Assembly: GCA_040349255.1 (NCBI GenBank)
Contig: JBEQUE010000231.1
Coordinates: 34,641 to 98,640, forward strand
From: Acidobacteriota bacterium
GTDB taxonomy: Bacteria; Acidobacteriota; Thermoanaerobaculia; Multivoradales; UBA5704
Direction of reading: 5' to 3'
Length of the DNA: 64,000 nt
In this document: positions 6,125-52,058 of the stretch, in pieces
How positions within the stretch are numbered: position 1 is the first letter of the stretch
How the letters are laid out: the number at the start of each line of letters is the position of its first letter
Made by a program: the position numbers and the translations under genes
The notes under the pieces: generated by a model
What the model was told of the DNA's origin: nothing
The model's database searches: none
What the model saw: the letters and a program-made list of their open reading frames with translations, nothing else

Positions 6125-7735
6125 ATGGACATCGCGCAACCCTACGAGGCCCGTCGGCCCGACGGCGCCGCGCTCTGGATGCCTCCGCGGCCGGTCCTCC
6201 TGACGGCCGCCTGGATGCTGCTGGTCGCGGCGGCCGTCTCCCTGCGCCCGATCCTGCCGGTGGACGAGACCCGCTACGTCTCCGTCGCCTGGGAGATGTG
6301 GGTGCGCGGCGACTTCCTGGTGCCGTACCTGAACGGCCTCCCCTACAGCGACAAGCCGCCGCTCCTGTTCTGGCTCTTCCACCTGGGCTGGTGGTTCTTC
6401 GGGGTCAACGACTGGTGGCCGCGCGTGGTCCCGGCCCTGTTCGGCCTCGCCAACCTCGCCCTCACCGCGCGCCTGGCCCGGCGCCTCTGGCCGGACCGGC
6501 CGGAAGTGGCGCGCAACGCTCCCGCCATCCTCCTCGGTCTCCTGCTCTGGACGGTCTTCACCACGATGGTGATGTTCGACATGCTGGTCGCCTTCTGCGT
6601 GCTGCTCGCCCTTCTCGGCCTGGAGGAAGCGCGTCGGCGTGGAGGCGTCCGGCCCTGGCTGCAGGTGGGCGGCGCCCTCGGCCTGGGCATCCTCGCCAAG
6701 GGGCCGGTCGTCTTCCTCCTGCCTCTCCTGGTGGCCGTGCTCGCGCCCTGGTGGAGCGGCCGGAATCTGCGGCTGAGTTGGTGGGGCGGCTTGCTCGGCG
6801 CCGTGGCGCTAGCCGCGGCGATCGGTCTCGCCTGGGCCCTGCCGGCCGCGGCCAGCGGAGGCCCCGCCTACTCGGACGCGATCCTGGTCGCGCAGACCAA
6901 GGAGCGCGTGGTTCACGCCTACGTCCACAACCGGCCCTGGTGGTGGTACCTGGCCCTGCTGCCGGGCCTGCTCTATCCGTACTCGGCGTGGCCTCCGCTG
7001 TGGAAGGCCGCATTCCGGTGCCAGGCCATGGACCGCGGGATGCGCTTCTGCCTGGCCTGGCTGGTCCCGGGGTTGCTCGCCTTCTCGCTGATCAGCAGCA
7101 AGCAGCCGCACTACATGCTTCCGCTGATGCCGGCCTTCGCGCTGCTCGCCTCCCGTCTGCTCTCGGAACCGGGGGTGACCGTCCGGCGCCGGCACATGCT
7201 GCCGGTCCTGGGCAGCGCCGGCCTGCTGGGGATCGTCCTGGCGGTGGCCCCTCTCCTGAAAGGCCGGAAGATCCCAGCCTGGGCGGCGCAGCTCTCTCCG
7301 GGCACGGGCGTGGCGCTGTTCGTCCTCGCGGTCCTGGCCTGGATCTTCTTCGATCGGATGTTCGCGCGCCGGGTGGCGGGGCCGACCCTGGTCGCGGTCG
7401 CCTTGGTGATCGGCCTCGATCTGGGGTTCTCCGAGGTGGCGCGGACGGCCTACGGCCTGGAGCCGGTGGCGCGCTATCTCAAGAGCGCCGAGGACCAGGG
7501 CCGGCCCATCGCCTGGGTGGGGGATTACCACGGTCAGCTCCATTTCCTCGGCCGCCTCGAGCGCCCGTTCCAGGAGATCCCGACCGGCGCGGAGTCGCTC
7601 TGGATCCGCCAGCACCCGCGCGGCAAGGTCGTCCAGGACCTGCAGTACATCCCTCCGGACGTCGAGCGGGCCGAGTTCACCCAGCCGTATCGCGGGGATA
7701 CGCTGGCGGTGTGGGGACGGGACGGGGTCCCCTGA
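6125..7735 (+). CDS. Second ArnT-like transferase
   Basis: DETRYVSVAWEM, YSDKPPLLFW and GILAKGP motifs; multi-TM; start uncertain (6125 or 6179). Confidence 0.85.
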   Translation: MDIAQPYEARRPDGAALWMPPRPVLLTAAWMLLVAAAVSLRPILPVDETRYVSVAWEMWVRGDFLVPYLNGLPYSDKPPLLFWLFHLGWWFFGVNDWWPRVVPALFGLANLALTARLARRLWPDRPEVARNAPAILLGLLLWTVFTTMVMFDMLVAFCVLLALLGLEEARRRGGVRPWLQVGGALGLGILAKGPVVFLLPLLVAVLAPWWSGRNLRLSWWGGLLGAVALAAAIGLAWALPAAASGGPAYSDAILVAQTKERVVHAYVHNRPWWWYLALLPGLLYPYSAWPPLWKAAFRCQAMDRGMRFCLAWLVPGLLAFSLISSKQPHYMLPLMPAFALLASRLLSEPGVTVRRRHMLPVLGSAGLLGIVLAVAPLLKGRKIPAWAAQLSPGTGVALFVLAVLAWIFFDRMFARRVAGPTLVAVALVIGLDLGFSEVARTAYGLEPVARYLKSAEDQGRPIAWVGDYHGQLHFLGRLERPFQEIPTGAESLWIRQHPRGKVVQDLQYIPPDVERAEFTQPYRGDTLAVWGRDGVP

Positions 7736-7772: not shown

Positions 7773-8297
7773 ATGAGGAATCCGATCTGGCAGGGGCTCC
7801 TGCTGCTCCTTCTGGCGGGTGGACCCATGGCGGCCCAACTGTGGCCACCGGGACCGCCCGTGACCGTCGCGGCGAACGCCGGCACCTTCGAGGTCCTGGA
7901 CAGCGTGAGCGCCTACGAGATGGGCTGGGAGCTGCGCTACGCGCCGCGGCGGTTCCGGTTCCTGCCGCGCTGGGCCCCGGACCTGATGCCCACGGCCGGA
8001 GTGATGGCGACCACCCGCGGTGTGATCTACCCCTACGCCGGGTTCCGTTTCGAAATCCCGCTCGGCGACCGCTGGGTGCTCAGCCCCGGGACTGCGGCGG
8101 GCCTCTACTACCGCGACCATGGCAAGAACCTCGGCGGGGGGCTGGAGTTCCGTTCCCACATCGAGCTCTCCTTCCGGCTCCCCTGGCAGGACCGGATCGG
8201 CATCTCCTTCTACCACCTGTCGAACGCCAATCTGTTCGACTTCAACCCCGGCACGGAATCGGCCGTGGTCACGTATACGGCGAAGCTGCGGCGTTGA
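7773..8297 (+). CDS. PagL-like lipid A deacylase / acyloxyacyl hydrolase beta-barrel
   Basis: Signal peptide; EFRSHIEL and FYHLSNA...NPGTES, matching the His-x-Ser catalytic region of PagL-like barrels. Confidence 0.75.
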   Translation: MRNPIWQGLLLLLLAGGPMAAQLWPPGPPVTVAANAGTFEVLDSVSAYEMGWELRYAPRRFRFLPRWAPDLMPTAGVMATTRGVIYPYAGFRFEIPLGDRWVLSPGTAAGLYYRDHGKNLGGGLEFRSHIELSFRLPWQDRIGISFYHLSNANLFDFNPGTESAVVTYTAKLRR

Positions 8298-8811
8298 CGC
8301 CCAACTGGGCCTGGTGGTGCTGGATGTGCCGGGCGCAGAAGAGAACGGCCTTCGGGAGCGAGGCGGGGCCGAAGTAGGCATGGGTGATCCGGGCGGGCGG
8401 CTTCCGCGCGCGGGCGTTGCGGACCGCGGTCTCGAACTCCTGGGCCCGTTGCCGGAACAGCGCCGCTCCGCTCGCCGGGTCGGGAGGGGCTTCGGTGGGC
8501 CGGATCTCGGGAGGCGCCGGGACCCGGCGCGGGAAGGCGCCGCCGCGCAGCAGCCGGGGCATGAGCGTGAGCCGCAGGAAGAGCCGCTTCCAGGCGGGGA
8601 GACGGATCCGCATGCCTGCGCCGCCGCCGACCTCGGCGATCAGCACATCATAGGTGCGGATCAGGTGGCCGGTGACCAGGGCCGGCGACCACTTGCCCTC
8701 CGCACGGGGAACATGCCACGCCGAGGGCTCGACCGCCTCGGCTGCGGCCGCGAACGAGGCAACGGCGGAGCCGTGGACGGCGAAGGCTTCGGACCAGGGA
8801 TCGGAGCGCAT
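8269..8811 (-). CDS. DinB-family protein
   Basis: GKWSPALVTGHL and ARHIQHH metal-binding histidines. Confidence 0.75.
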   Translation of the reverse strand: MRSDPWSEAFAVHGSAVASFAAAAEAVEPSAWHVPRAEGKWSPALVTGHLIRTYDVLIAEVGGGAGMRIRLPAWKRLFLRLTLMPRLLRGGAFPRRVPAPPEIRPTEAPPDPASGAALFRQRAQEFETAVRNARARKPPARITHAYFGPASLPKAVLFCARHIQHHQAQLGVNAAASPYT

Positions 8812-8843
8812 CGGGTCCTATCGAGGGATGAGAAAGAGGATGG

Positions 8844-9062
8844 CTATCCCCGTTCTCGGGACTCGCGGATGGCCTCCAGGATGTCCTGCATCGTTGCCTG
8901 TGTCCTGACGGGCGCCACGTCGAAGGGCGAGGAGCTCTGCGGCCGAAGGGCGACGCTGAACTGCTCGCCATTCCGACGCCGGATGATTACCTCTTCCCGC
9001 CGGGCCTCCTCCAGCAGAGTGGCGAGGTGCTCTCGGGCCAGGGTGTATGTATATACCTTCAT
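8844..9062 (-). CDS. Phd/YefM-type antitoxin with no intact toxin next to it
   Basis: MKVYTYTLAREHLATLLEEARREEVIIRRRNG, a Phd-like N-terminus. Confidence 0.75.
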   Translation of the reverse strand: MKVYTYTLAREHLATLLEEARREEVIIRRRNGEQFSVALRPQSSSPFDVAPVRTQATMQDILEAIRESRERG

Positions 9063-9065
9063 GGT

Positions 9066-9167
9066 TCACACCAGCAGTTGAATGTTGAGCTGCTCTGCGA
9101 CTTCCCTCATCGGCTCATTCTAGGCGAGCTGGAGGCGTTCTTGTCGCCTTAGAGCGCCTATATCAAA
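9066..9167 (-). pseudogene. Probable C-terminal remnant of a PIN toxin
   Basis: Manual translation gives FDIGALRRQERLQLA*NEPMREVAEQLNIQLLV*, with an in-frame TAG at 9120-9122. It ends 4 nt before the antitoxin ATG, and the tail resembles PIN toxin C-termini. Confidence 0.4.
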
Positions 9168-9458
9168 ACGGCCCAACGGGCCTGTCGTTACGGGTGTTTG
9201 CGACGCGGTCAAGTCGCGTCCTGGCCCTGGCCGGATGCTGGTGATTGTCTGTAGTTGGTGGACCACAAGTGGACCATTCTCGCCTTCGAGGGAGAGACCC
9301 TATGAGCCCCTTCTCGCGGCGAGGATCATCAACTCAGCGAGGTTCGCCCGGCCGGCGTCCAAGAGATCGCACGCCCACTGTGCCTTGACCCATTCCTCAT
9401 GTCGCCTCAAACTGGGCGTATTGCGAGCTTCGGCCGAGATGTGCGGCCGATCGGACAA

Positions 9459-9691
9459 TCAGCGCTGCCGTCGTGCCGCCTCAACCGCGGCTCGTCCGAG
9501 CTCCGCCGGAGTGGCTTTGAACGCCGCCTCCAATCCTTTCCTGGCCGCCGATGTTTGCAGGCGCTCGAGCAGACCCTCGAACTTGGTGCTTAGCGCCTCG
9601 AGGGTCTCGGAACGCGCGCTGCTCAAGGACTCGAGCTCTTCGTAGGAAAGAGCACTGCTTTCGGCGCGTCGTGCCGGGTGATCGCGACGGC
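9459..9691 (-). pseudogene. Frameshifted Phd-type antitoxin remnant (type usually paired with a zeta/AAA toxin)
   Basis: AVAITRHDAPKAVL, a one-base frameshift near 9650, then LSYEELESLSSARSETLEALSTKFEGLLERLQTSAARKGLEAAFKATPAELGRAAVEAARRQR*. Not present in the ORF track. Confidence 0.65.
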
Positions 9692-9774
9692 GTCGGACGC
9701 GGCGCGGCAGCCGGACTGCCGACGTCTTGTAGTCAAGATTGCGGGCTCGTCGCTTCCCTACGACGGCGAGTGGC

Positions 9775-10707
9775 TCAGTGCGGTTCGTCCAGGACCGCGG
9801 CGACTGAAGTGGCGACGATGGCCTTCTCCAGCCAGCGTTCCAGCCGCTCCGGATCCTTCTGGGCCAGGATGCGCTCGCGGACGGCGTCGGGTACTTCGAT
9901 GCCGCGAACCCGAAGGACGGTCAGCACATTGAGCGCCGTCGCCTCGGTCCGTCCTTTGCTGAGCCCTTCGGTAAGCCCCTTGGTGAGCCCTTCGGTAAGC
10001 CCCTCGGTGAGCCCCTCGGCATGTCCTTGCGCGACGTACTTTTTCGCGAAATCGCTCTGGTATTCGTAGCCCTTCATCATCGTCTCCAACGCGCGGCGGG
10101 CCGCGTCGTTCAGGGAATTGTACACGAGGTCGTAGTAGAACCTGGCCCGGTCATCATCGAGTCCCTGGATTGCGGGCAGCACCGCGGCGGCGATCGTCGC
10201 TCCTTGCTCGGACTCGCCGTGCGCCAGCGCGGAGAGAACGCCAAGCTCGGGCCGGCGGGACGCTTCCTCGGTGTCTGTCACGAGCGGAATTGCGGTGCGG
10301 CGAAGAACAGGTGGGCGCAGCACGAAGCCGGGGATTCCGGTCTCGATCGGTTCCGCGCACCACCCGGCGACGATCGGGTTGGGCGCGACAACGAGGAGAG
10401 CCGCCGGGCAGTTGTGGATGGCGCGGGAAACCGTCACGTAAGCAGGCCAGCTCAGACGCTTTCTGGGGTCCGTCGCCAGTTGGACCTCGACGATGATCAC
10501 CCGAACGGAGACTTCCCCATCAAGGAGCACGACGACGGCGTCAGCGCGATATTCGGCGGGCTGGATTTCGGTCAGGTCGGACGAGGCAAGGCGGGCTTCA
10601 GTGTAGGCCGGGAGCGAGACGCCGAGCACCTCGACCAGGATCTCGGCGGCGAGCGAGGGGCGGTTCTTGAAGAGATCCACAAGAATCTCGTGGGCCATGG
10701 AGGGCAT
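9775..10707 (-). CDS. Rpn-like PD-(D/E)XK nuclease/transposase-like protein
   Basis: EYRADAV...IVEVQL nuclease-like core; YQSDFAKKY followed by (EGLT)n tail; start MPSMAHE supported by a -10-like hexamer 7 nt upstream. Confidence 0.65.
   Translation of the reverse strand: MPSMAHEILVDLFKNRPSLAAEILVEVLGVSLPAYTEARLASSDLTEIQPAEYRADAVVVLLDGEVSVRVIIVEVQLATDPRKRLSWPAYVTVSRAIHNCPAALLVVAPNPIVAGWCAEPIETGIPGFVLRPPVLRRTAIPLVTDTEEASRRPELGVLSALAHGESEQGATIAAAVLPAIQGLDDDRARFYYDLVYNSLNDAARRALETMMKGYEYQSDFAKKYVAQGHAEGLTEGLTEGLTKGLTEGLSKGRTEATALNVLTVLRVRGIEVPDAVRERILAQKDPERLERWLEKAIVATSVAAVLDEPH
9960..10019 (-). repeat. Five 12-bp coding tandem repeats (EGLT/KGLT)
   Basis: Units tgagcccttcgg, taagccccttgg, tgagcccttcgg, taagcccctcgg, tgagcccctcgg. 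Confidence 0.9.
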
Positions 10708-10798
10708 GGAGGCCATTGTCGCATGAAAACATGCCCGATAGCACGTCGAAGAGATCCGGATGACGGCGAGGAGAGACACCCCGAAGCTCGCGCCAGGT

Positions 10799-11043
10799 AA
10801 AAAGCGGCGTGTTTCAACGCGGTAGAGCCAAAGGCACCGGGCTCTGCCTCCCTCCAGGGGTTGGCGTCTGTCATTCGAGGAGGGAGGCCGAGGGGAATCT
10901 TCAGGAGGGCATCCACGCGCCCTCCCATCCGGCCTTCCCCCGGAGCCGCCCGTGCCTGAACGGCAGACACGGATTCCCGGAAGGCCGGAACCCCCAGATT
11001 GGCGGATGGCGGCGGCCTTGGACTCGGCGGCCGGCCATCCTCA
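10799..11043 (-). ncRNA. Candidate structured non-coding RNA (~245 nt), family unknown
   Basis: Six consecutive stems, including two 10-bp perfect stems (ccggccttcc/ggaaggccgg and gcctccctcc/ggagggaggc); 5' boxA-like element; 3' small hairpin plus U5. Confidence 0.45.
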
Positions 11044-11060
11044 TTGAGTTGTCAAGGAAC
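11044..11060 (-). promoter_or_regulatory. boxA-like antitermination element 2
   Basis: GTTCCTTGACAACTCAA closely resembles rRNA-leader boxA sequences. No -10 lies at 17 bp, so it is not a promoter. Confidence 0.5.
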
Positions 11061-11069
11061 CACGCCATC

Positions 11070-11104
11070 AGAACAACAGGGGCCCGCCGGGATGGCGGAC
11101 CCCT
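11070..11104 (-). terminator. Intrinsic terminator after the 119-aa gene
   Basis: AGGGGTCCGCC-ATCCC-GGCGGGCCCCT (11 bp, one G-U) followed by GTTGTTCT. Confidence 0.65.
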
Positions 11105-11115
11105 GGGTGAGACAC

Positions 11116-11475
11116 CTACTCCGGCTGCGGCAGCGGGCTGTCGTCCGTGCTGCGCGTCCGGGTGTGCAGCGGCTGGAGGCCGAACTCGGCGACCTTCTGG
11201 CTGCGGTTGCCGTAGTGCTCGCGCACCGAGGTGCGCAGCACCGTGGCGAGCTTGCGGCCCTGGGCCAGCAGGAAGTAGACCCGCTCGGTGGCCTGCTGCC
11301 GGCTCGCGGTCAGCGCGGCCTGCTCGGCCGTGAAGGCCCGGATCTGGTCCAGGAGGGTCTGGAGCCTCTGGCGGGGGAGGTCCAGTTGCGCGAGCTCGCC
11401 GCTGTTCTCCTCCAGGGCGGTCAACAGCTCCTCCCATCCGTTGACGGTCGCGCCGTACGACTTCGAGTTGGGCAT
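11116..11475 (-). CDS. Hypothetical alpha-helical protein, 119 aa
   Basis: Strong RBS AAAGGAGAAGGAC-ATG; dedicated promoter and terminator; helical sequence ending EFGLQP. Confidence 0.8.
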   Translation of the reverse strand: MPNSKSYGATVNGWEELLTALEENSGELAQLDLPRQRLQTLLDQIRAFTAEQAALTASRQQATERVYFLLAQGRKLATVLRTSVREHYGNRSQKVAEFGLQPLHTRTRSTDDSPLPQPE

Positions 11476-11509
11476 GTCCTTCTCCTTTCCTGGGGTTCCC
11501 GACCCCGAT

Positions 11510-11523
11510 TGACGGCGCCGTCA
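11510..11523. promoter_or_regulatory. Perfect 14-bp palindrome in the 5' leader
   Basis: TGACGGCGCCGTCA, 35 nt upstream of the ATG at 11475. Confidence 0.45.
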
Positions 11524-11578
11524 TCGGCGCCGGTTCCTATCAGCCGGAGGCTCGCGGGTTCCACCCATTCCCAGGAGA

Positions 11579-11591
11579 AGTTTTCAAAGAT
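11579..11591 (-). promoter_or_regulatory. boxA-like element 1
   Basis: ATCTTTGAAAACT, about 22 nt downstream of the predicted TSS. Confidence 0.5.
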
Positions 11592-11608
11592 GACCGGCTT
11601 CGCCCACT

Positions 11609-11649
11609 GACGGATCGGTAGTCTAGATCCGTCTCATTGTGGATGTCAA
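11609..11649 (-). promoter_or_regulatory. Sigma70-type promoter with overlapping inverted repeat
   Basis: TTGACA (11644-11649)-N18-TAGACT (11620-11625); the IR GACGGATC-N9-GATCCGTC (11609-11633) straddles the -10. Confidence 0.7.
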
Positions 11650-11733
11650 GACGTCTAAGCGCATTTTCCTTGGACTCGACAGCAACGCCTTCCGAGGGCC
11701 GAAAAGCTGGAAATCCCCGCCGTTCCTCGTTTT

Positions 11734-12056
11734 CAGCCTCTCGGCAAGTTCGACGGGCCTCTCCGCGGGCTTCCCGGGACTCCCGTTGGCCTTGACGAGG
11801 CTCTCGTCGAGCTTCCCGAGCCTCTCATCCAGCTCGACGAGCCTCCCGGCGGCCTCCCGGGCCTTCCATCCAGCTCGACGAGCCTCTCCGCGACCTCCGC
11901 GCGGCTCTTGTCGAGGTCGTCGAGCCTCTCATCCAGGCGGACGAGCCTCTCATCGAGGTGGACGAGCCTCTCGTCCAGATGGATGAGCCCCTCGTCGACC
12001 TCCCGAGCCTCCCGTCCAGCTTGCCGAGCCTCTCGTCGAGCTCGTCCGGAGCCTCG
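11734..12056. repeat. Degenerate 21-bp-period tandem array (~15 units)
   Basis: The gagcctctc-like core recurs at 11734, 11755, 11776, 11797, 11818, 11839, 11859, 11880, 11901, 11922, 11943, 11964, 11985, 12005 and 12026. Confidence 0.9.
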
Positions 12057-12067
12057 TCAGGCTCGCT

Positions 12068-12108
12068 CCCTCTCTCCCGGCCCGGGAGAGAGGGCTGGGG
12101 AGAGAGGG
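12068..12108. repeat. BoxC/REP-like purine-pyrimidine palindromic element
   Basis: ccctctctcccgg-c-ccgggagagaggg hairpin plus ctggggagagaggg tail. Confidence 0.6.
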
Positions 12109-12142
12109 AACGGGATCAAATCCCTGTGCTATCCTCCCGGCC

Positions 12143-12418
12143 ATGGCTGTCGATCCGGAGCTGCTCGAGATCCTTGTCTGTCCCAAGTCCAGGGGTGAGC
12201 TGGAGCTGATCGACCTCCCGCAGGAGGTCCGCTCGGCGCTGGCCGAGAAATACCGGGAGCACTTCCGCGACGAGGAGCCGGTCGTGGAGCAGGGGCTCTA
12301 CTGCGCGGCCTCCGGCCTCGTCTATCCGGTCGTCGCGGACATCCCGATCATGCTGATCGAGGACGCCCTGCCGGCCTCCGCCGTGGGACGACCGGGCGAG
12401 CCCGTCCCGGCCCCCTAG
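12143..12418 (+). CDS. Trm112-family protein with internal insertion
   Basis: LLEILVCPKSRGEL...GLYCAASGLVYPVVADIPIMLIEDA. Confidence 0.8.
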   Translation: MAVDPELLEILVCPKSRGELELIDLPQEVRSALAEKYREHFRDEEPVVEQGLYCAASGLVYPVVADIPIMLIEDALPASAVGRPGEPVPAP

Positions 12419-13671
12419 TGTCCACCGCCCCGCAGGCTCCCCAGGATCCTTCCGTCCCCCCGCTCTCCCGGATCCGGCGGGCGGGCTCCTGGCTGTTCTC
12501 CGGCCATCTCCTCGCCGTCTTCAGCATCGCGGCCTCGAACATCCTCCTCGGCCTGACCGTCCTCACCCTCCCCTGGAGCCTGCGCGGCCGGCGGGAGGAC
12601 TGGAGCCGCGCGGCGCCGCTCCTGCTGTGGACCGGCGTCTACGCTCTCTGGCTGGTGGGCTCGATCTGCGCCTCGTTCGACCCGCCGACCAGCCTCGGCG
12701 GGCTGCGCGAGCTGTTCACGCTCTCCGCCCTCCTCATGGCGCCCGGCCTGGTGCGCGGCGAGGCCGAGGTCCGCCGCCTGATCGACGGTCTCGTCGCGGC
12801 CGCCGCCCTGCTCGCCTGCGCCGGCCTCTCCCAGTACCTGGTCGGCTATGGCGACATCGACCGGCGTATCCGCGGACCCTTCTCTCACTACATGACGTTC
12901 TCCGGCTTCCTCCTGATCTGCGACATGCTGCTCCTGTCCCACCTCCTGATTTCCGGCCGCGGTGGGGGCCGCTGGGGCTGGCGCTGGGTGGCCCTGGTGC
13001 CGATCAACGTTGCCCTCCTCGCCAGCTACACCCGCAGCGCCTGGGTGGGTCTGGTGGTGGCGGTGACCGTGCTCGTCCTCATCCGCGCGCCCAGGCTCCT
13101 GCTCGCCTACTTCCCGCTCGGCGTGCTCATCGTCCTCCTCGCCCCGGTGCCGATCGTGCGGCGGATGCTCTCGATCACAGACCTGCAGGACCCGTCGAAC
13201 TACGACCGCATCTGCATGCTGGAGGCCGGGCTGACCATGGTGAAGGAACGCCCGCTTTTCGGCCTCGGCCCGGAGATGGTCGAGCGCCGGTACCCGATCT
13301 ACCGCTCGCCCAGCGCGCCGCGCTTCGAGGTCCCCCACCTCCACAACAGCTTCCTGCAGCTCGCGGCCGAGCGCGGCGTCCCGACCCTGCTCGCCTATCT
13401 CGCGATGAACGCCGCCTGCCTGCGCGCCATGCTCCGGCGCTACCGCAGGGAGGGCGGACGGCGGGGGCCGCGGGCCGATCTCTATCTCGGCGGGCTGCTC
13501 GCGCTCCTCGCCTTCAACGTGGCCGGCCTGTTCGAGAACAACTGGGGCGATACGGAGGTCCAGCGCCCGGCCCTGTTCCTGTTCGTGCTGCCGTTCTGTC
13601 TGGCGGCCGGGTCCGAGGAAGACGCCGGCGAGCCGGATGATATGCTCCCGGACCGGCCGGAGGCCGTTTGA
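12418..13671 (+). CDS. O-antigen ligase (Wzy_C) family membrane protein
   Basis: Multi-TM; SYTRSAW, RPLFGLGP and HLHNSFLQLAAERG motifs. Confidence 0.8.
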   Translation: MSTAPQAPQDPSVPPLSRIRRAGSWLFSGHLLAVFSIAASNILLGLTVLTLPWSLRGRREDWSRAAPLLLWTGVYALWLVGSICASFDPPTSLGGLRELFTLSALLMAPGLVRGEAEVRRLIDGLVAAAALLACAGLSQYLVGYGDIDRRIRGPFSHYMTFSGFLLICDMLLLSHLLISGRGGGRWGWRWVALVPINVALLASYTRSAWVGLVVAVTVLVLIRAPRLLLAYFPLGVLIVLLAPVPIVRRMLSITDLQDPSNYDRICMLEAGLTMVKERPLFGLGPEMVERRYPIYRSPSAPRFEVPHLHNSFLQLAAERGVPTLLAYLAMNAACLRAMLRRYRREGGRRGPRADLYLGGLLALLAFNVAGLFENNWGDTEVQRPALFLFVLPFCLAAGSEEDAGEPDDMLPDRPEAV

Positions 13672-30522: not shown

Positions 30523-32382
30523 ATGTGCGGCATCGCGGGGATCTACCGTTTCCGGTCGGCGCGCCCGGTGGAGCCGGAGGAGGTCCGGACCATGGGCGCC
30601 TGCCTGGCCCACCGGGGGCCGGACGACGAGGGCTACCTCACCGACGGGCCGCTCGGGCTCGCCCACAAGCGGCTGACCATCCTCGACACCTCCTCGCGCG
30701 GGCGCCAGCCCCTGTTCAGCGAGGACGGGCAGTCGTGCATCGTCTTCAACGGCGAGGTCTACAACTTCGTCGAGCTGCGCGCCGAGCTGGAGGCCCGGGG
30801 CGAGACGTTCCGGACGACCACAGACACGGAGGTCATCCTCCGGCTCTGGGAGCGGACCGGCGAGGCTTGCCTCGACCGGCTGAACGGCATGTTCGCGTTC
30901 GCCATCTGGGACAGGCGCCGCCAGGCGCTGTTCATCGCCCGCGACCGCCTCGGCATCAAGCCGCTCTACTGGACGCTGGACGCGGACGGCCTGCGCTTCG
31001 CCTCCGAGATCAAGGCGCTCCTCGCCACTTCCGACCGCAGGCCGGGCGTCAACCTCGACATGCTCGACGCCTACATGAGCGTCGGCTACGTGCCGACCGA
31101 GCGCACGCTGTTCCAGGGCGTCGAGAAGCTCCAGCCCGGCTGGTGCATGACGGTCGACCGGGACGGTCCGCGCCTGCGCCAGTACTGGGACCTGCGGCCC
31201 GAGCCCGAGGACCTCTCCGAGGAGGAGTGCGTCCGGGAGACGCTCGAGCTGCTGCGCGACTCGGTCCGCATCCAGCTCAGGAGCGACGTGCCGCTCGGCG
31301 TCTTCCTCTCGGGCGGCGTCGATTCGAGCGCCGTGGTGGCCCTGATGCACGAGATGGGCGTGCGCGACATCCGCACCTTCACGGTGGCCTACGACTTCGG
31401 GCCGGAGTACGACGAGACGCGCTACGCCCGGAAGGTGGCGGAGCAGTTCAACACGCGGCACCGCGAGGTGTTCGTCACGCCGCGGGAGTTCCAGGAGTTC
31501 ATCCCGTCGCTCGTCTGGCACATGGACGAGCCGGTGACCGAGTCGGCGGCGATCTCGCTCTACTTCGTGTCGAAGATGGCGCGCGAGGACGTGACCGTCG
31601 TGCTCTCCGGCGAGGGCTCGGACGAGGTATTCGGCGGCTATCCGATCTACAGCTACATGCGGACGCTGGAGCGCTACCGCAGGCTGCCGGCGGCGCTGCG
31701 CCGGAACCTGATCAATCCCGCGCTCGACCGGCTCGGTGGCAAGTGGAACAAGTACACGCGGCTCTCCGACCTGCCCCTCCATGAGCGCTACCTGGGCGTT
31801 TCGTTCTACGAGACGCCCGTCAAGGAGGCGCTCTACCGGCCGGAGATCCGAAACCTTTTCAACGGCCACGGCATGCCGGGCTTGATTCAGCCTTTTTACG
31901 AAAAAGCGAAGGGGCTCGACGCGCTCCACCAGATGATGTATCTGGACGTGAAGAGCTGGCTGCCGGACGACCTCCTGATCAAGGCCGACAAGATGACGAT
32001 GGCGAGCTCGGTCGAGCTGCGCGTGCCGTTCCTGGACCACCGGGTGGTCGAGCTGGGGGGCCGTATCCCGTCGCGCCACCGGATCCGGGGCTGGACCACG
32101 AAATACATTCTCAAAAAAGCCATGGAGCCCTATCTGCCGCGCGAAATCCTGCATCGTGGCAAGATGGGTTTTCCCACGCCGCTGGCCCACATGTTCCAGG
32201 GCGAGATGCGCCCGTATGTGGCCGAGGTACTCGGCAGCGACCGCTCGCTCGGCCGCGGCTATTTCAAGCCGGAGTCCGTGCGCGGCCTGGTCGACGAGCA
32301 CATGGACGGCCGGCGGGACCACCACCGGGTGCTCTGGCAGCTCCTCGTGCTGGAGGAGTGGCACCGGTCGTTTGTGGACTGA
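30523..32382 (+). CDS. asnB: Asparagine synthase-like amidotransferase 1
   Basis: N-terminal MCGIAG; HRGPD, RDRLGIKPL, LSGGVDSS and SGEGSDE motifs. Confidence 0.9.
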   Translation: MCGIAGIYRFRSARPVEPEEVRTMGACLAHRGPDDEGYLTDGPLGLAHKRLTILDTSSRGRQPLFSEDGQSCIVFNGEVYNFVELRAELEARGETFRTTTDTEVILRLWERTGEACLDRLNGMFAFAIWDRRRQALFIARDRLGIKPLYWTLDADGLRFASEIKALLATSDRRPGVNLDMLDAYMSVGYVPTERTLFQGVEKLQPGWCMTVDRDGPRLRQYWDLRPEPEDLSEEECVRETLELLRDSVRIQLRSDVPLGVFLSGGVDSSAVVALMHEMGVRDIRTFTVAYDFGPEYDETRYARKVAEQFNTRHREVFVTPREFQEFIPSLVWHMDEPVTESAAISLYFVSKMAREDVTVVLSGEGSDEVFGGYPIYSYMRTLERYRRLPAALRRNLINPALDRLGGKWNKYTRLSDLPLHERYLGVSFYETPVKEALYRPEIRNLFNGHGMPGLIQPFYEKAKGLDALHQMMYLDVKSWLPDDLLIKADKMTMASSVELRVPFLDHRVVELGGRIPSRHRIRGWTTKYILKKAMEPYLPREILHRGKMGFPTPLAHMFQGEMRPYVAEVLGSDRSLGRGYFKPESVRGLVDEHMDGRRDHHRVLWQLLVLEEWHRSFVD

Positions 32383-41874: not shown

Positions 41875-43797
41875 ATGTGCGGGATCGCGGGTCTCTTCCT
41901 CTATTCCGAAGGCGGGTTCGCCCGCCGCGAGACGCTGGAGCAGCTCATCCGGCCGCTCCGCCACCGCGGGCCGGACGACGAGGGCTATCTCCTGTCGGGT
42001 CCGCTCGGCCTGGCGCACGCGCGGCTGAGCATTCTCGACCTCGACGGCGGCCACCAGCCGATCTTCAACGAGGACCGCTCGCTCGCGGTGGTCTGCAACG
42101 GCGAGATCTACAACCACCGCGAGCTGCGCCGCGGCCTGGAGAGGCGAGGCCACCACTTCGCCACCGGTTCGGACACCGAGGTGATCGTCCATCTCTACGA
42201 GGAGCTGGGCGCCGGCTGCGTCGAAAAGCTCGCCGGCATGTTCGCGCTCGCCGTGGCCGACTTCCGGCAGCGGAAGCTGCTCCTGGCGCGCGATCGCGTG
42301 GGAAAGAAACCGCTCTACCTGGCCGACGACGGCCGCCGCCTCGGCTTCGCCTCGGAGCTCAAGTCGCTCGCCAACGCCGGGCTCGCAGGGCCGGAGATCG
42401 ATCCCGAGGCGCTCGACCTCTATCTTTCGTTCGGCTACGTGCCCACGCCCTGGACGATCTTCCGCGGCGCCCGCAAGCTGCCGGCCGGCCATCTCGCCAT
42501 GGTCACCGAGGCCGGCCTGCGCGTCGAGCGCTACTGGGATGTCGAGATGCGGCCGGTCGAGGTGGACGAGGAGCGGCTCGTCGAGGACCTGGAGGCGCTG
42601 CTGTCCGACGCCGTGCAGGCGCGGCTGGAGAGCGACGTCCCGCTCGGCGCGTTCCTCTCGGGAGGCCTCGACTCGGGCACGATCGTCTCGTTCATGGCCT
42701 CCGCCATGGACCGGCCGGTGATGACGCACACCGTGGGATTTTCCGACCGCGGGACCGACGAGCGCGAGGACGCCGCGGCCGTGGCGCGTGCGCTCGGCAC
42801 GGACCACAGGGCCACCGAGGTGCGGCCCGATCTCGCCGACGTGCTGCCGCGCATCGCCTGGCACCTGGACGAGCCGTTCGCCGACCCGTCTTCCGTGCCC
42901 ACCTGGTATGTCTCGCGCGAGACCCGGCGGCGCGTGACCGTGGCCCTCTCCGGCGACGGCGGCGACGAGCTGTTCGCGGGCTATGGAAACCGATATGGAC
43001 GATCGCTGATCGAGGATCGGGTGCGCGGTCTGATCCCGGGGCCGGTGCGCAGGGGGCTCCTGCCTCCGCTCGCCCGGACCTGGCCGCGCTCGGCCCGCCT
43101 GCCGCGTCCTCTGCGGATCGGCGGGTTCCTCGGCAACGTTTCCGTGGACCGCGACCGGGCCTATTTCCACGACCGCTCGCACATCCCGCCGCATCTCCAG
43201 GAGCGGCTTTTCGGAGAGGGTCTGCGCGAGCGCCGCCGGCGTTTCGACCCGTTCGTGGCGCTGGAGCCGCACCTCGCCCGCGCGCCGCAGGAGCCGCTGG
43301 CCCGCGCGCTCTATCTCGATCTCAAGACCTGGCTCGCCGACGACGGCCTGGTCAAGGTGGACCGGATGAGCATGGCGCACGCGCTGGAGGTGCGCTGCCC
43401 GCTGCTCGACCACCGCGTGGTGGAGCTGGCCGCCCGCGTGCCGTCGCGGCTCAAGATGGACGGCGGGCGCACCAAGATCCTGCTACGCCGCGTGGCGGAG
43501 CGGCGGCTGCCGAGGGAGATCCTCTCCAGGCCGAAGCGCGGCTTTGCGCCGCCGGTGTCGCGCTGGCTGCGCGAGGACCTGCGCGAGCTGTCGCACGACC
43601 TGCTGCTCGGGCCGGACGCGCTGGCCGGCGGCCTGTTCGAGCGCCGCGAGGTGGCGTCTCTGCTCGGCGATCACGAAGCGGGCCGGCTCGACGCCGGCTG
43701 GGCGATCTGGACGCTGCTGATGCTGGAGGTCTGGGGACGCGAGGTGAACCGGAGCGCCGGCGAGGAGTTGGAGGTGGCGAGTGCCGTCGGCGTCTGA
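41875..43797 (+). CDS. asnB: Asparagine synthase-like amidotransferase 2
   Basis: MCGIAG, HRGPD, LSGGLDSG and SGDGGDE motifs. Confidence 0.9.
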   Translation: MCGIAGLFLYSEGGFARRETLEQLIRPLRHRGPDDEGYLLSGPLGLAHARLSILDLDGGHQPIFNEDRSLAVVCNGEIYNHRELRRGLERRGHHFATGSDTEVIVHLYEELGAGCVEKLAGMFALAVADFRQRKLLLARDRVGKKPLYLADDGRRLGFASELKSLANAGLAGPEIDPEALDLYLSFGYVPTPWTIFRGARKLPAGHLAMVTEAGLRVERYWDVEMRPVEVDEERLVEDLEALLSDAVQARLESDVPLGAFLSGGLDSGTIVSFMASAMDRPVMTHTVGFSDRGTDEREDAAAVARALGTDHRATEVRPDLADVLPRIAWHLDEPFADPSSVPTWYVSRETRRRVTVALSGDGGDELFAGYGNRYGRSLIEDRVRGLIPGPVRRGLLPPLARTWPRSARLPRPLRIGGFLGNVSVDRDRAYFHDRSHIPPHLQERLFGEGLRERRRRFDPFVALEPHLARAPQEPLARALYLDLKTWLADDGLVKVDRMSMAHALEVRCPLLDHRVVELAARVPSRLKMDGGRTKILLRRVAERRLPREILSRPKRGFAPPVSRWLREDLRELSHDLLLGPDALAGGLFERREVASLLGDHEAGRLDAGWAIWTLLMLEVWGREVNRSAGEELEVASAVGV

Positions 43798-46198
43798 CGG
43801 GCGGCCGGTCCGCCTTCTGATTTTCTCGACGGTGTTCCCGAACGCCGCCCAGCCGCACCACGGGATCTTCGTGCGCGAGCGGATGCGCGGCCTGCCGGAG
43901 GACGTCGAGGTCCGCGTCGTGGCGCCCGCGCCATGGTTCCCGTTCGTCTCCGGCCTGCGTCCGGGCTTCCGCCCTGACGTCCCGAAGGAGGAGGTTCAGG
44001 ACGGCATCCGCGTCCTTCATCCCCGCTTCCTTTCCATTCCCGGCTTCGGCAAGAGCCTGGACGGTCTCTTTCTCTTCCTGGGCTCGCTGCCGGCGCTGAT
44101 CCGCCTGCGCCGGGATTTCCGGTTCGATGCGATCGACGCGCATTTCGTCTACCCGGAGGGGCTGGCAGCGGTCCTGCTCGGAAAGGTTTTCAAGAGGCCG
44201 GTACTGATCACGCTGCGCGGCATGCTGCCGCTCCTGGCGCCTTACCGACTGCGCCGGCCGCAGCTCCGTTTCGCCCTGCGCGGCGCGGCGCGGATCGTCG
44301 CGGTCTCCGGCTCGCTCAAGGAGGACGCGGTGCGGCTCGGCGTGGATCCCGGCCGTGTGCGGGTGATCGAGAACGGGATCGATCCCGAGCTGTTCCGCCC
44401 GCTCGATCGCAACGAGGCGCGCCGCTCGCTGGGCCTGCCGGAGGACGGTCCGCTCCTGGTCTCGGTCGGTACGCTCTCGCCGAGAAAGGGTTTCCATCTG
44501 GTGATGGAGGCCATGGCCAAGCTCCGTCCGGACGTGCGTTTCGCGGTCGTCGGCGGCGACGGCGCGGAAGGAGCCATGGAGGCGGAGCTGCGTGCGCTCG
44601 CGGCCCGGCTCGGTCTTCAGGACCGCGTGAACTTCGCGGGGCCGCGGGGCCGCGGCGAGCTGGCCGCCTGGTACAGCGCCGCCGACGTCTTCGTGCTGGC
44701 GAGCGGCCACGAAGGCTGCCCGAACGTGGTTCTTGAGGCCCTGGCCTGCGGCACGCCGGTGGTGGCGACGCCGGTCGGCAACGTGGCCGAGCTGGTGACG
44801 CCGGACGTGGGCATCGTGGCCGAACGAAAGGTTTCCGAGTTGGCGGGAGCGATCGGGCAGGCGCTCTCCCGCGGCTGGAATCGCGAGGCGATCCGGGCGC
44901 GCATCGAGCCGCGGACCTGGAAGGCTGTGGGGCGGGAGGTGATGGAGGAGGTCCGGGCGGTGAGGGGCTCGAGGATCCTCTACCACCACCGCACCCGCGC
45001 CGGCGACGCCCAGGGCATCCACATCGCGGAGATGCAGCGCGCCTTCCGCGACCGCGGCCACGAGGTGACCGAGGTGGCGCTGGTCGAGGCCGGCGCCGAG
45101 GCGCGGGCGGACGAGAAGGGCGGCTCCGCGCGCGGGCTGGCCGGCTTCGCGTCGCGCCTGGCCGGGGCGTTGCCGCTGCCCGCGAAGGAGATCCTGGAGC
45201 TCGGCTACAACCTCGTGGCCTATCGCCGGCTGTCCAAGGCCATCCGCCGGCTCCGTCCCGACTTCCTCTACGAGCGTTACTCCGCCAACACCTTCGCCGG
45301 CCTCGCCGCGGCGCGCCGCCACGGCGTGCCGTTCGTGCTGGAGGTCAACTCGCCGCTCGCGCTCGAAAAGACCGAGCACGACGGACTTTTTTTCAAGCGC
45401 CTCACCCGGTTCGTGGAGCGCCGGCTGTGCAGCGGAGCCGACGTCACGATCGCGGTGACGCGCGTTCTGGCCGGCATCCTGGAGGACGAAGGGGTGCCGC
45501 CGGGCAAGGTCGTGGTCATGCCGAACGGCGTGCGCCGCGAGTTCGGGGCCGGCGCGGACCGGGAGGGATTCCGCCGCAGGCTGGGCATTCCGCCGGACGC
45601 CGTGGTCGCCGGCTTCGTCGGCTGGTTCCGCGCCTGGCACGGCCTGGAGCGCCTGCTGGAAGCCGCGGCCAGCCCCGAGTGGCGAGCAGCCAGCGTCCAT
45701 CTCGTCCTCGCCGGAGACGGCCCGGCCATGCCGACCTTGCGGACGATGCGTGCCGAGCTGGGACTGGAGGACCGGGTCCACCTCTGCGGCGCGGTGCCGC
45801 GGGGCGAGGTGGAGTCGGCGCTGGCGGCGTTCGACGTCGCGGTCCAGCCGGCGGTCACGTCGTACGCGTGTCCGATGAAGGTCATCGAATACATGGCGGC
45901 CGGCCTGGCGATCGTCGCTCCCGGCTCGGACAACGTGCGCGAGCTGCTCGACGATGGAGAGACCGCCCTGCTCTGCCCGGGCGGGGCCAATCCGTCCCGG
46001 GAGGATCTGAGAGACGGCGTGCTCCGGCTGGCCCGCGATCCGGAGCTGCGCCGGCGACTCGGCGCGGCGGCCCGGCGGGCGCTCCTGGAGCGCGGCTATC
46101 TGTGGGAGGAGAACGCGCGCCGCGTCGAGGAGCTGGTGGCACGGATCAAGCAAAGACAGGGGGCCGTGGTCCCTCTTGGAGAGGTGGAATCTTGCTGA
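43781..46198 (+). CDS. Fused tandem GT4-GT4 glycosyltransferase (805 aa)
   Basis: Two complete GT4 units (EGCPNVVLEALA; ACPMKVIEYMAAG) in one frame; internal GGAGGAGG plus GTG at 44960. Confidence 0.8.
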   Translation: MPSASDGRPVRLLIFSTVFPNAAQPHHGIFVRERMRGLPEDVEVRVVAPAPWFPFVSGLRPGFRPDVPKEEVQDGIRVLHPRFLSIPGFGKSLDGLFLFLGSLPALIRLRRDFRFDAIDAHFVYPEGLAAVLLGKVFKRPVLITLRGMLPLLAPYRLRRPQLRFALRGAARIVAVSGSLKEDAVRLGVDPGRVRVIENGIDPELFRPLDRNEARRSLGLPEDGPLLVSVGTLSPRKGFHLVMEAMAKLRPDVRFAVVGGDGAEGAMEAELRALAARLGLQDRVNFAGPRGRGELAAWYSAADVFVLASGHEGCPNVVLEALACGTPVVATPVGNVAELVTPDVGIVAERKVSELAGAIGQALSRGWNREAIRARIEPRTWKAVGREVMEEVRAVRGSRILYHHRTRAGDAQGIHIAEMQRAFRDRGHEVTEVALVEAGAEARADEKGGSARGLAGFASRLAGALPLPAKEILELGYNLVAYRRLSKAIRRLRPDFLYERYSANTFAGLAAARRHGVPFVLEVNSPLALEKTEHDGLFFKRLTRFVERRLCSGADVTIAVTRVLAGILEDEGVPPGKVVVMPNGVRREFGAGADREGFRRRLGIPPDAVVAGFVGWFRAWHGLERLLEAAASPEWRAASVHLVLAGDGPAMPTLRTMRAELGLEDRVHLCGAVPRGEVESALAAFDVAVQPAVTSYACPMKVIEYMAAGLAIVAPGSDNVRELLDDGETALLCPGGANPSREDLRDGVLRLARDPELRRRLGAAARRALLERGYLWEENARRVEELVARIKQRQGAVVPLGEVESC

Positions 46199-50090: not shown

Positions 50091-52058
<1,968 letters not shown>

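Follow-up and report, generated by a model that had tools for sequence, protein, structure and literature searches.

On its minus strand, at 11062-10835, the 64,000-nucleotide (nt) stretch of Acidobacteriota DNA analysed here (the window; contig JBEQUE010000231.1 of assembly GCA_040349255.1, positions 34,641 to 98,640) carries an RNA element that begins with a motif resembling boxA, the signal known from ribosomal RNA (rRNA) leaders. The element is conserved, strand-specific, non-coding, structured and multi-copy, and is absent from Rfam. At least ~100 related copies come from metagenome-assembled genomes (MAGs) of Thermoanaerobaculia/Holophagales and from soil metagenomes and, as far as sampled, the family is restricted to Acidobacteriota-type MAGs and soils. 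We regard it as a new family of RNAs, in which a known signal, boxA, appears in a new setting. Our preferred reading, to which we assign a probability of about 0.55, is that the window element is a type A copy of a multi-copy family of Nus-loaded untranslated RNAs in Thermoanaerobaculia/Holophagales-like Acidobacteriota. An earlier annotation made from the letters alone (the first-pass annotation) had proposed here an antiterminated, untranslated and structured RNA of ~245 nt and of no known family, lying between an orphan gene and a nuclease-like gene. The boxA-like GTTCCTTGACAACTCAA and all the stems that it listed can indeed be read on the minus strand at 11060-10799; its picture was incomplete, however, in that the multi-copy nature of the element and the 20-21-bp tandem arrays associated with it emerged only from the comparison of loci described below.

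The family and its boxA-like core

To collect relatives, 54 genomic loci around homologues of ORF119, the 119-amino-acid open reading frame (ORF) upstream of the element, were fetched and compared by blastn with the intergenic region as query. A conserved element lies 3′ of ORF119 in loci L001-L003 and L005-L009 and at other positions in L034, L035 and L046, the homology starting exactly at boxA and stopping near GAGCCCGGAG (~10835 in the window). When metagenomes were scanned for a degenerate pattern of the apex of P1, the hairpin that follows boxA, at least 120 loci were returned. Among the fetched loci the P1 pattern has at least 135 matches, at least 102 of them with the P1 outer stem and at least 98 of those with boxA at a fixed distance; 33 of the at least 135 matches look like chance occurrences in coding sequence, many of them alanine-rich. 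An nhmmer profile of the core added a few further copies, and three near-miss boxA variants and four boxA-less copies are the exceptions among the fetched loci. One MAG holds at least five copies (L001, L002, L003, L034 and L035), whilst repeat, mismatch and profile scans of the 64-kb window revealed a single one. The sequence 3′ of P1 splits the family into several subtypes, that of the window being type A.

The boxA-like motif GTTCCTTGACAACTCAA occupies 11060-11044 on the minus strand (read from the sequence and found by a mismatch scan), with its 11-nt core GTTCCTTGACA at 11060-11050. As a 17-mer it occurs once in the window (0.05 occurrences being expected with up to three mismatches), and NTCNTTGANAA has just two sites in 64 kb, both on the minus strand and 520 nt apart: the flagged site and one in the leader of ORF119. 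No other part of the family is as well conserved as this motif, whose conservation spans at least 16 nt; across 79 distinct cores (alignment A3) the motif reads G-Y-T-C-N-T-T-G-A-M-A-A-Y-T. Positions G1, T3, T6, T7, G8, A9 and A11 are present in 79/79 cores and C4 and A12 in 78/79 each, where the regular expression used for selection imposed T3, T7, G8, A9 and A11 and left G1, C4, T6 and A12 free; positions 2, 5 and 10 are variable, position 5 being A, T or C. The gamma-proteobacterial boxA consensus is GYTCTTTAANA, and the double change C4T/T6C abolishes its function in Escherichia coli (PMC5725501). The window core matches 9/11 positions of this consensus, which may not be that of the host. 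Its degenerate positions 2 and 10 are also variable in the family, and the function-critical C4 and T6 are invariant or nearly so; the family departs from it at positions 5 and 8. Downstream of boxA the family core continues, 4-8 nt further on, with P1 and its 8-nt loop G-N-GUCCAA. A second short motif, [CG]GUGU[GAC], is found 59-77 nt past the start of P1 in 60/96 copies of various subtypes, the background rate being 0.13 per scanned interval.

It might be argued that the motif is a boxA look-alike, whether a single-stranded A/U-rich seed, a protein site or a −35-like element, at the head of a trans-acting small RNA (sRNA) whose handle is constant and whose body varies. It does include TTGACA or TTGAAA, the 3′ domains vary like those of modular sRNAs, and the RNAs of the family are too short to need protection from Rho. 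No −10 box lies 16-18 nt past the motif, however, and the promoters of relatives are found 40-80 nt upstream of boxA, on which grounds we reject a −35 role; moreover, at least 16 nt are conserved and the pattern of invariant and degenerate positions follows the boxA consensus (PMC5725501). We therefore regard a look-alike as distinctly unlikely.

A fold conserved on one strand

Base pairing was assessed in 37 distinct type A copies, the window included (alignment A4, made with MAFFT), using a structure derived from the window sequence. Overall, 85.6% of helix cells are paired, a figure that falls to 41-55% if the 3′ partners are shifted by 1-3 columns. Thirteen pairs show double changes, and the 50 double-change cells compare with 24.6 ± 3.5 in shuffled alignments, none of 500 of which reaches 50. 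RNAalifold, run independently, recovered P1, the junction helix, P2 together with inner GGA/UCC and CC/GG pairs, and P3. From boxA to ~10835 the helices are thus retained with covariation, and the claim of a structured RNA is upheld.

The helices, all on the minus strand, contribute to this in different ways. P1 (GGAUGG-C-CGGC-C-GCC, loop GAGUCCAA at 11025-11018, GGC-C-GCCG-CCAUCC; 37 nt, 11040-11004), whose outer stem is the ggatggc/gccatcc pairing noted earlier, is 95.6% paired, its inner stem and invariant loop G-N-GUCCAA being fixed by the search pattern and its free positions covarying: at column pair 36-49, 28 copies have U-A and nine have G-C, and the outer-stem A-U of the window is C-G in most relatives. 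A junction helix, GGGG(G) at 10995-10991 with CCCC at 10895-10892, found in both the minimum free energy (MFE) and RNAalifold structures, encloses P2 and P3 and is 95.7% paired. In P2, CCGGCCUUCC (10988-10979) pairs with GGAAGGCCGG (10938-10929); the helix, which includes the conserved GGGAAUCCGUGU, is 91.6% paired, 23 copies having C-G and 12 U-A at column pair 99-163, and 18 having U-G, 11 C-G and seven U-A at column pair 96-166. The P2 inner hairpin is of variable length (in the window CCGUG at 10972-10968 with CACGG at 10954-10950) and differs wholly in length and sequence between clades, its pairing always being kept. P3 (GGAGGGC/GCCCUCC, 10925-10904) is 88.8% paired with double changes at two pairs. 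P4 (GCCUCCCUCC/GGAGGGAGGC, 10888-10846) becomes CACCUCGC/GCGAGGUG in the other clade and has double changes at six pairs, only 64.9% of its cells being paired because the MAFFT register differs between clades. Finally, CCCGGAGCC in the conserved 3′ tail GAGCCCGG(U)GCC (10844-10833) is predicted to form a long-range, pseudoknot-like closing helix with GGCUCCGGG (10947-10939), which is 95.8% paired and so nearly invariant that it is unproven.

Beyond this point the window copy is on its own. The hairpins AGAGCC/GGCUCU (10845-10824) and GCGU/ACGC (10820-10807) and the terminal U5 (T5 in the DNA, 10803-10799), all on the minus strand, have no counterpart among the relatives in the same alignment, so that the conserved unit is ~225 nt long (11062-10835) and not 245-260 nt: of the extent given by the first-pass annotation, the U5 is present but does not mark the end of the conserved unit. 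The 10845-10799 hairpins and U5 are possibly a weak local terminator, although the terminator scan did not pick them up.

In the boxA-sense orientation, 188 cells of the type A alignment are G·U and 61 are A·C, an excess indicating that selection acts on the boxA-sense strand; base-pair covariation and this bias together bear out the earlier assignment to the minus strand. No reading frame is kept open, the sense frames being stop-free in only 2, 3 and 12 of the 37 copies, and the spacing of invariant anchors covers all three classes modulo 3. The element is thus non-coding, in agreement with the untranslated RNA first proposed.

Promoters, ends and downstream genes

Several relatives have a promoter of their own, TTGACA-N17/18-TATCAT, -TATCCT or -CATCCT, located 40-80 nt upstream of boxA and pointing into the element, and one subgroup shares a conserved start block, CGCATATCGAGGAGG. 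Strict sigma-70-like criteria find promoters in 8/88 copies versus 6/87 in the reverse-complement control, with looser TTGACA-N17/18-YAnnCT promoters in more copies than this; because the strict score is so near the control, the promoter evidence rests on the aligned blocks. Terminator-like ends, in which the closing helix is followed by a U-rich tract, are seen in 49/93 copies versus 22/93 in the antisense direction, typically ~125-160 nt past boxA in the short subtypes. Close relatives have U-rich tracts after the 3′ tail (for example CCCGGAGUUUUGUUU), and the 3′ end of the window copy has only a weak 4-bp stem and the U5.

The first downstream gene is co-directional in 32/55 copies and convergent in 23/55, several copies abut the 3′ end of a convergent gene, and no conserved downstream gene family is apparent among the family loci. 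With only 32/55 co-directional, the RNA is not simply a leader; the element behaves as a self-contained RNA gene and is not tied as a leader to any one gene.

In many copies a co-directional ORF of antitoxin-like or accessory type lies within the next 60-200 nt, which is what might be expected of a cis-acting, nut-like cassette for processive antitermination. Such a cassette would use the promoter, boxA and P1 to load a termination-resistant polymerase for downstream accessory genes (toxin-antitoxin pairs, nuclease-like genes), with the structured domain and U-tract as the terminator to be overridden and ORF119 perhaps acting like lambda N. The order of boxA and then hairpin resembles lambda boxA-boxB, the nuclease-like gene of the window starts ~85-120 nt downstream on the same strand, and two boxA-like sites flank the terminator in the ORF119 unit. 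Against this, nearly half the copies face or end against a convergent gene and no downstream family is conserved; P1, with its 37 nt and 8-nt loop, is unlike boxB; and ORF119, a helical bundle in its structural model, has no arginine-rich motif and is absent from 30/54 copies. We consider a cis-acting cassette unlikely.

ORF119, its leader and the tandem arrays

ORF119 (11475-11116, minus strand) encodes a helical protein and was described as an orphan by the first-pass annotation, a label that does not survive comparison: homologues form at least 79 clusters from Thermoanaerobaculia/Acidobacteriota MAGs and soil metagenomes (alignment A1). Among the 54 copies with enough flank, an ORF119-family gene lies upstream on the same strand in 16, is divergent in eight and is absent from 30, so that it is linked to the RNA in ~44% of copies, with 45 to >600 nt between its stop codon and the element. 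Searches of Pfam, PHROGs, NCBIfam and PADLOC with ORF119 gave nothing significant (a single weak PADLOC match has E = 0.0038) and an exact-sequence lookup gave no match. Its AlphaFold 2 (AF2) model consists of three long helices (predicted local distance difference test score, pLDDT, 78.7) and, compared with the PDB, yielded only helical-bundle noise (E >= 2.6); weak matches to Avd-like proteins of diversity-generating retroelements (DGRs) in this list were not credited.

Directly past the ORF119 stop codon and 16 nt ahead of boxA is a terminator-like hairpin, CAGGGGUCCGCC-AUCCC-GGCGGGCCCCUG followed by UUGUUCUGAU (11105-11067, minus strand), and a similar hairpin with a U-run is present 3′ of the ORF in L001, L003, L006 and L008. 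The same four loci keep the ORF119 promoter and leader (11649-11476, minus strand), in which TTGACA (11649-11644), an 18-nt spacer and TAGACT (11625-11620) precede a leader of ~145 nt. The leader contains the second boxA-like site, CATCTTTGAAAACTT (11580-11591, minus strand), which is found in close relatives only. Next to it lies CUUCUCCU, a predicted pairing partner of the Shine-Dalgarno sequence AGGAGAAG, and by analogy the leader may be subject to Nus-dependent translational control of the suhB type. Two further observations concern this leader. Its UCCUGGGAAUGGGUG...GAGCCUCCGG is similar to the P2 region of the RNA, and L129 (~470-640) lacks ORF119, whose promoter and leader boxA are joined there ~60 nt upstream of the RNA boxA.

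Upstream of the ORF119 promoter is a 21-nt tandem array of ~12-14 units (11750-12044; minus-strand consensus GACGAGAGGCUCGUCnAnCUN), which translates as LDERLxx heptads in all three frames, with frame breaks. Tandem arrays with a period of 20-21 bp or multiples of it (40-42, 63, 83) occur at most 700 nt upstream of 29/74 copies, compared with 1/74 in a downstream control; besides the window, the loci concerned are L005-L009, L034, L062, L064, L067, L082, L083, L086, L100, L101, L143, L160, L161 and L169. The unit sequence is locus-specific, most units have a short palindrome, and arrays other than that of the window are A/T-rich and clearly non-coding. The arrays look like iterons or operator arrays. 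In six loci two divergent boxA-RNAs 440-1000 bp apart enclose promoters and a tandem array, giving a symmetric module of ~1 kb (L086, 3673/4222; L082, 3742/4187; L077, 1435/1875; L067, 3749/4345; and also L097 and L161).

A tentative proposal, possible but far from assured, is that the RNA is part of an undescribed Acidobacteriota module made up of a locus-specific 20-21-bp array, a promoter, a Nus-loading handle of boxA and P1, and an interchangeable structured domain, often in divergent pairs and sometimes with ORF119. Such a module could represent a new class of RNA element, regulatory or semi-autonomous and dependent on Nus factors; its RNAs might, for instance, recruit or titrate the antitermination machinery and be switched by a factor that binds the array.

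The paired arrangement also bears on whether the element acts as DNA, as the terminus or inverted repeat of some small module, mobile or replicative, whose hairpins form in single-stranded DNA or are incidental. The divergent pairs flank iteron-like arrays, there are several copies per genome, L122 and L146 have a 3′ fragment of a tRNA immediately beside the element, the flanking genes of the window and of L001 are ordered differently, and the plus strand also folds well. The compensatory changes and the 3:1 preference for G·U over A·C nevertheless point to selection on one transcribed strand, and the promoters of relatives point into the element. No conserved gene for a transposase, an integrase or replication lies near the element; in IMG/VR viral contigs the P1 pattern gave four coding chance matches without boxA and no genuine copy, and blastn against plasmid and phage records gave no match to the element. 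A role at the level of DNA thus seems to us very unlikely.

A model for the RNA and points that weigh against it

In our preferred reading, that of a Nus-loaded untranslated RNA, members of the family would consist of an rrn-type boxA, P1 with the loop G-N-GUCCAA, a subtype-specific multi-helix domain, the closing long-range helix and a U-rich tract, the type A domain being modelled as a three-way junction (P2, P3) and then hairpin P4. The element would work as RNA, in the boxA-sense orientation. As boxA leaves RNA polymerase it would, to judge from its sequence, be bound by NusB-NusE(S10), and by analogy with rRNA leaders and some CRISPR leaders NusB-NusE on boxA would nucleate a Nus-modified elongation complex. 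We infer that this complex would be Rho-resistant or folding-competent, shielding an untranslated, C-rich transcript from Rho and aiding formation of its long-range helices. P1 and the variable domain would form the functional body of an RNA that, most probably, binds a protein or serves as a scaffold. Relatives with a TTGACA-N17/18 promoter would be independent small-RNA genes, whilst the window copy would probably be a read-through product of the ORF119 promoter, whose leader has the second boxA-like site.

Several points weigh against this reading. Position 8 of boxA is always G in the family and A in the gamma-proteobacterial consensus; G at this position is usual in Gram-positive-type rRNA boxA (GTTCTTTGAAAAC). 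At 150-250 nt, such RNAs have little need of a shield against Rho, so that the role of boxA may be a different one. The closing or pseudoknot helix shows neither double changes nor covariation, and in the window copy it has a U·U mismatch. Folding alone is a poor guide: the minus strand has an MFE of −129.4 kcal/mol, which is lower than that of most shuffled sequences but gives a z-score of only −2.17, with 4/200 shuffles folding equally well, whereas the plus strand (z = −3.74) folds at least as well, and the first-pass expectation of a fold better than shuffles is borne out only in part. As z = −2.17 is unconvincing taken alone, the case rests on the comparative evidence. Lastly, the window copy lacks a promoter, boxA lying 16 nt past the upstream terminator-like hairpin; with this, the mismatch and a private 3′ end, it may be less typical or partly decayed.

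Taken further, the missing promoter, the closing-helix mismatch and the private 3′ end, together with the rrn-like boxA, might suggest that the element is a decaying duplicate of an rRNA leader or some other non-functional relic, or that the window holds a pseudo-copy. At least ~100 copies in many genomes and metagenomes, however, keep the structure with compensatory changes, and none of the fetched loci has rRNA genes, so that we find a relic barely credible.

Nus complexes that depend on boxA are textbook knowledge for rRNA and lambdoid phages, with a recent extension to a few mRNAs and to CRISPR leaders. If the Nus-loaded reading is true, the family would be the first dedicated non-rRNA, non-CRISPR class of RNA built around boxA, and it would be found in an abundant but poorly studied soil phylum. 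It offers a testable handle on the roles of Nus factors beyond ribosome synthesis, on how untranslated RNAs escape Rho in high-GC bacteria and on the purpose of the 20-21-bp tandem arrays, as well as an alignment ready to seed a new RNA family.

Neighbouring genes and other features

The nuclease-like gene downstream of the element (9775-10716, minus strand, with its start at 10716 or 10779; 313-334 amino acids) is an Rpn/YhgA-like 'predicted transposase' gene with GLTE repeats. It has more than 1463 homologues, some named 'predicted transposase YdaD' by the Joint Genome Institute (JGI), in Thermoanaerobaculia/Acidobacteriota MAGs and soil metagenomes, and no Pfam domain was found in it. The gene is co-directional with the element, beside which the first-pass annotation had placed it, but the family is the first downstream gene in 0/54 other copies scored; the gene is a neighbour only, and we reject the idea that the element is its 5′ untranslated region (UTR). 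Within the gene, a 12/24-nt tandem repeat at 9956-10019 encodes (E)GLT(E/K)GLT, with a copy number that appears variable among more than 1400 homologues of 290-330 amino acids.

Elsewhere in the window, which is ~70% G+C, a 72-amino-acid ORF at 8844-9062 on the minus strand (MKVYTYTLAREHLATLLEEARREEVIIRRRNGEQF…) looks by eye like a Phd/YefM-type antitoxin, with no match in PHROGs, NCBIfam or PADLOC. ARAGORN reports an unusually long tRNA-Pro (CGG) of 93 nt at 45757-45849, and three paralogous stretches of 60-80% identity, apparently asparagine-synthase-like, lie at 30609-31640, 41961-42983 and 50168-51223 in a region of the polysaccharide-biosynthesis type. When window positions 8000-13500 are compared with L001, the O-antigen-ligase-like and DinB-like flanks are seen in permuted order around the unit of array, ORF119 and RNA; in L001 a 99-nt piece of the ligase-like gene is duplicated (2872-2970 and 7586-7675). 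The tRNA fragment of L122 and L146 is a 3′ half (…GGTTCAATCCCGATCGTCGGCTCCA) immediately 3′ of the RNA with no complete tRNA gene, the type of remnant left at genomic-island integration sites.

Comparison with known RNAs and systems

Scanned with covariance models at gathering thresholds, the whole window has no match in Rfam 15, and at E <= 10 the region 10600-11250 gives only sub-threshold chance matches; nor does ARAGORN find a tRNA or transfer-messenger RNA (tmRNA) at the site. Among the families rejected for want of a gathering-level match at the element are tRNA, tmRNA, RNase P, signal recognition particle (SRP) RNA, 6S RNA, riboswitches, Acido-1, Acido-Lenti-1 and HEARO, which agrees with the first-pass view that no hallmark of the commoner classes is present and that the family is not a known one. 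A match to tfoR (E = 1e-4, 27.5 bits versus a cutoff of 70) falls on the ORF119 terminator and not on the element, and our literature searches returned no prior description of the family. An Rfam scan of 20 related loci found only Acido-Lenti-1 (RF01687), above its gathering score in three fetched loci: L143 (2288-2332, minus), L166 (172-218, minus) and L156 (2075-2122, plus). Like the element this is an orphan RNA motif of Acidobacteriota, but it differs in sequence and lies away from the element, at other positions and on other strands.

EAR (eps-associated RNA) and other RNA-based processive antiterminators offer a broader parallel: each is a structured RNA in a polysaccharide-biosynthesis neighbourhood that could modify the elongating polymerase, and the window carries glycosyltransferase, O-antigen-ligase-like and asparagine-synthase-like genes. 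The Rfam scans gave no match to EAR in sequence or structure, however, and the members of the present family are found in unrelated genomic contexts.

With the lambda nut sites and N protein, the element shares the order of boxA, short spacer and hairpin, and the presence of a small protein gene and terminators in one unit. Lambda boxB, however, is a hairpin of ~15 nt with a GNRA-like pentaloop, whereas P1 has 37 nt and an unrelated 8-nt loop, GAGUCCAA; and lambda N is arginine-rich, whereas the three-helix model of ORF119 is without an arginine-rich N terminus and the gene is missing from 30/54 copies. We therefore reject identity with a lambda-type nut site on the size and loop of P1 and the features of ORF119.

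The antitermination signal of rRNA leaders (boxB-boxA-boxC, with NusB, NusE, NusA and NusG, together with SuhB) has in common with the element a sense-strand boxA-like motif of 11-13 nt in an untranslated, structured transcript, and the invariant and degenerate positions of the element's boxA parallel GYTCTTTAANA, a gamma-proteobacterial consensus (PMC5725501). The differences are that no rRNA gene follows the element, that boxA position 8 is G, that boxA is followed by a 37-nt hairpin with a fixed 8-nt loop, and that the elements are short, multi-copy and often have 20-21-bp arrays upstream. The [CG]GUGU[GAC] motif is, we presume, reminiscent of rRNA-leader boxC, but it lies ~100 nt downstream and not ~10 nt.

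Targets of Nus factors outside rRNA, namely boxA in the leaders of CRISPR arrays and in the 5′ UTR of suhB, come from work of the Wade laboratory (PMC5725501) and were reportedly described also by Stringer et al. (2020). In these systems, as in the element, boxA is found outside rRNA on non-translated or poorly translated RNA. The suhB 5′ UTR resembles the ORF119 leader, with a boxA-like site beside a sequestered ribosome-binding site. What sets the element apart from both is that it has neither CRISPR repeats nor cas genes with it and that its RNA body is itself conserved and structured.

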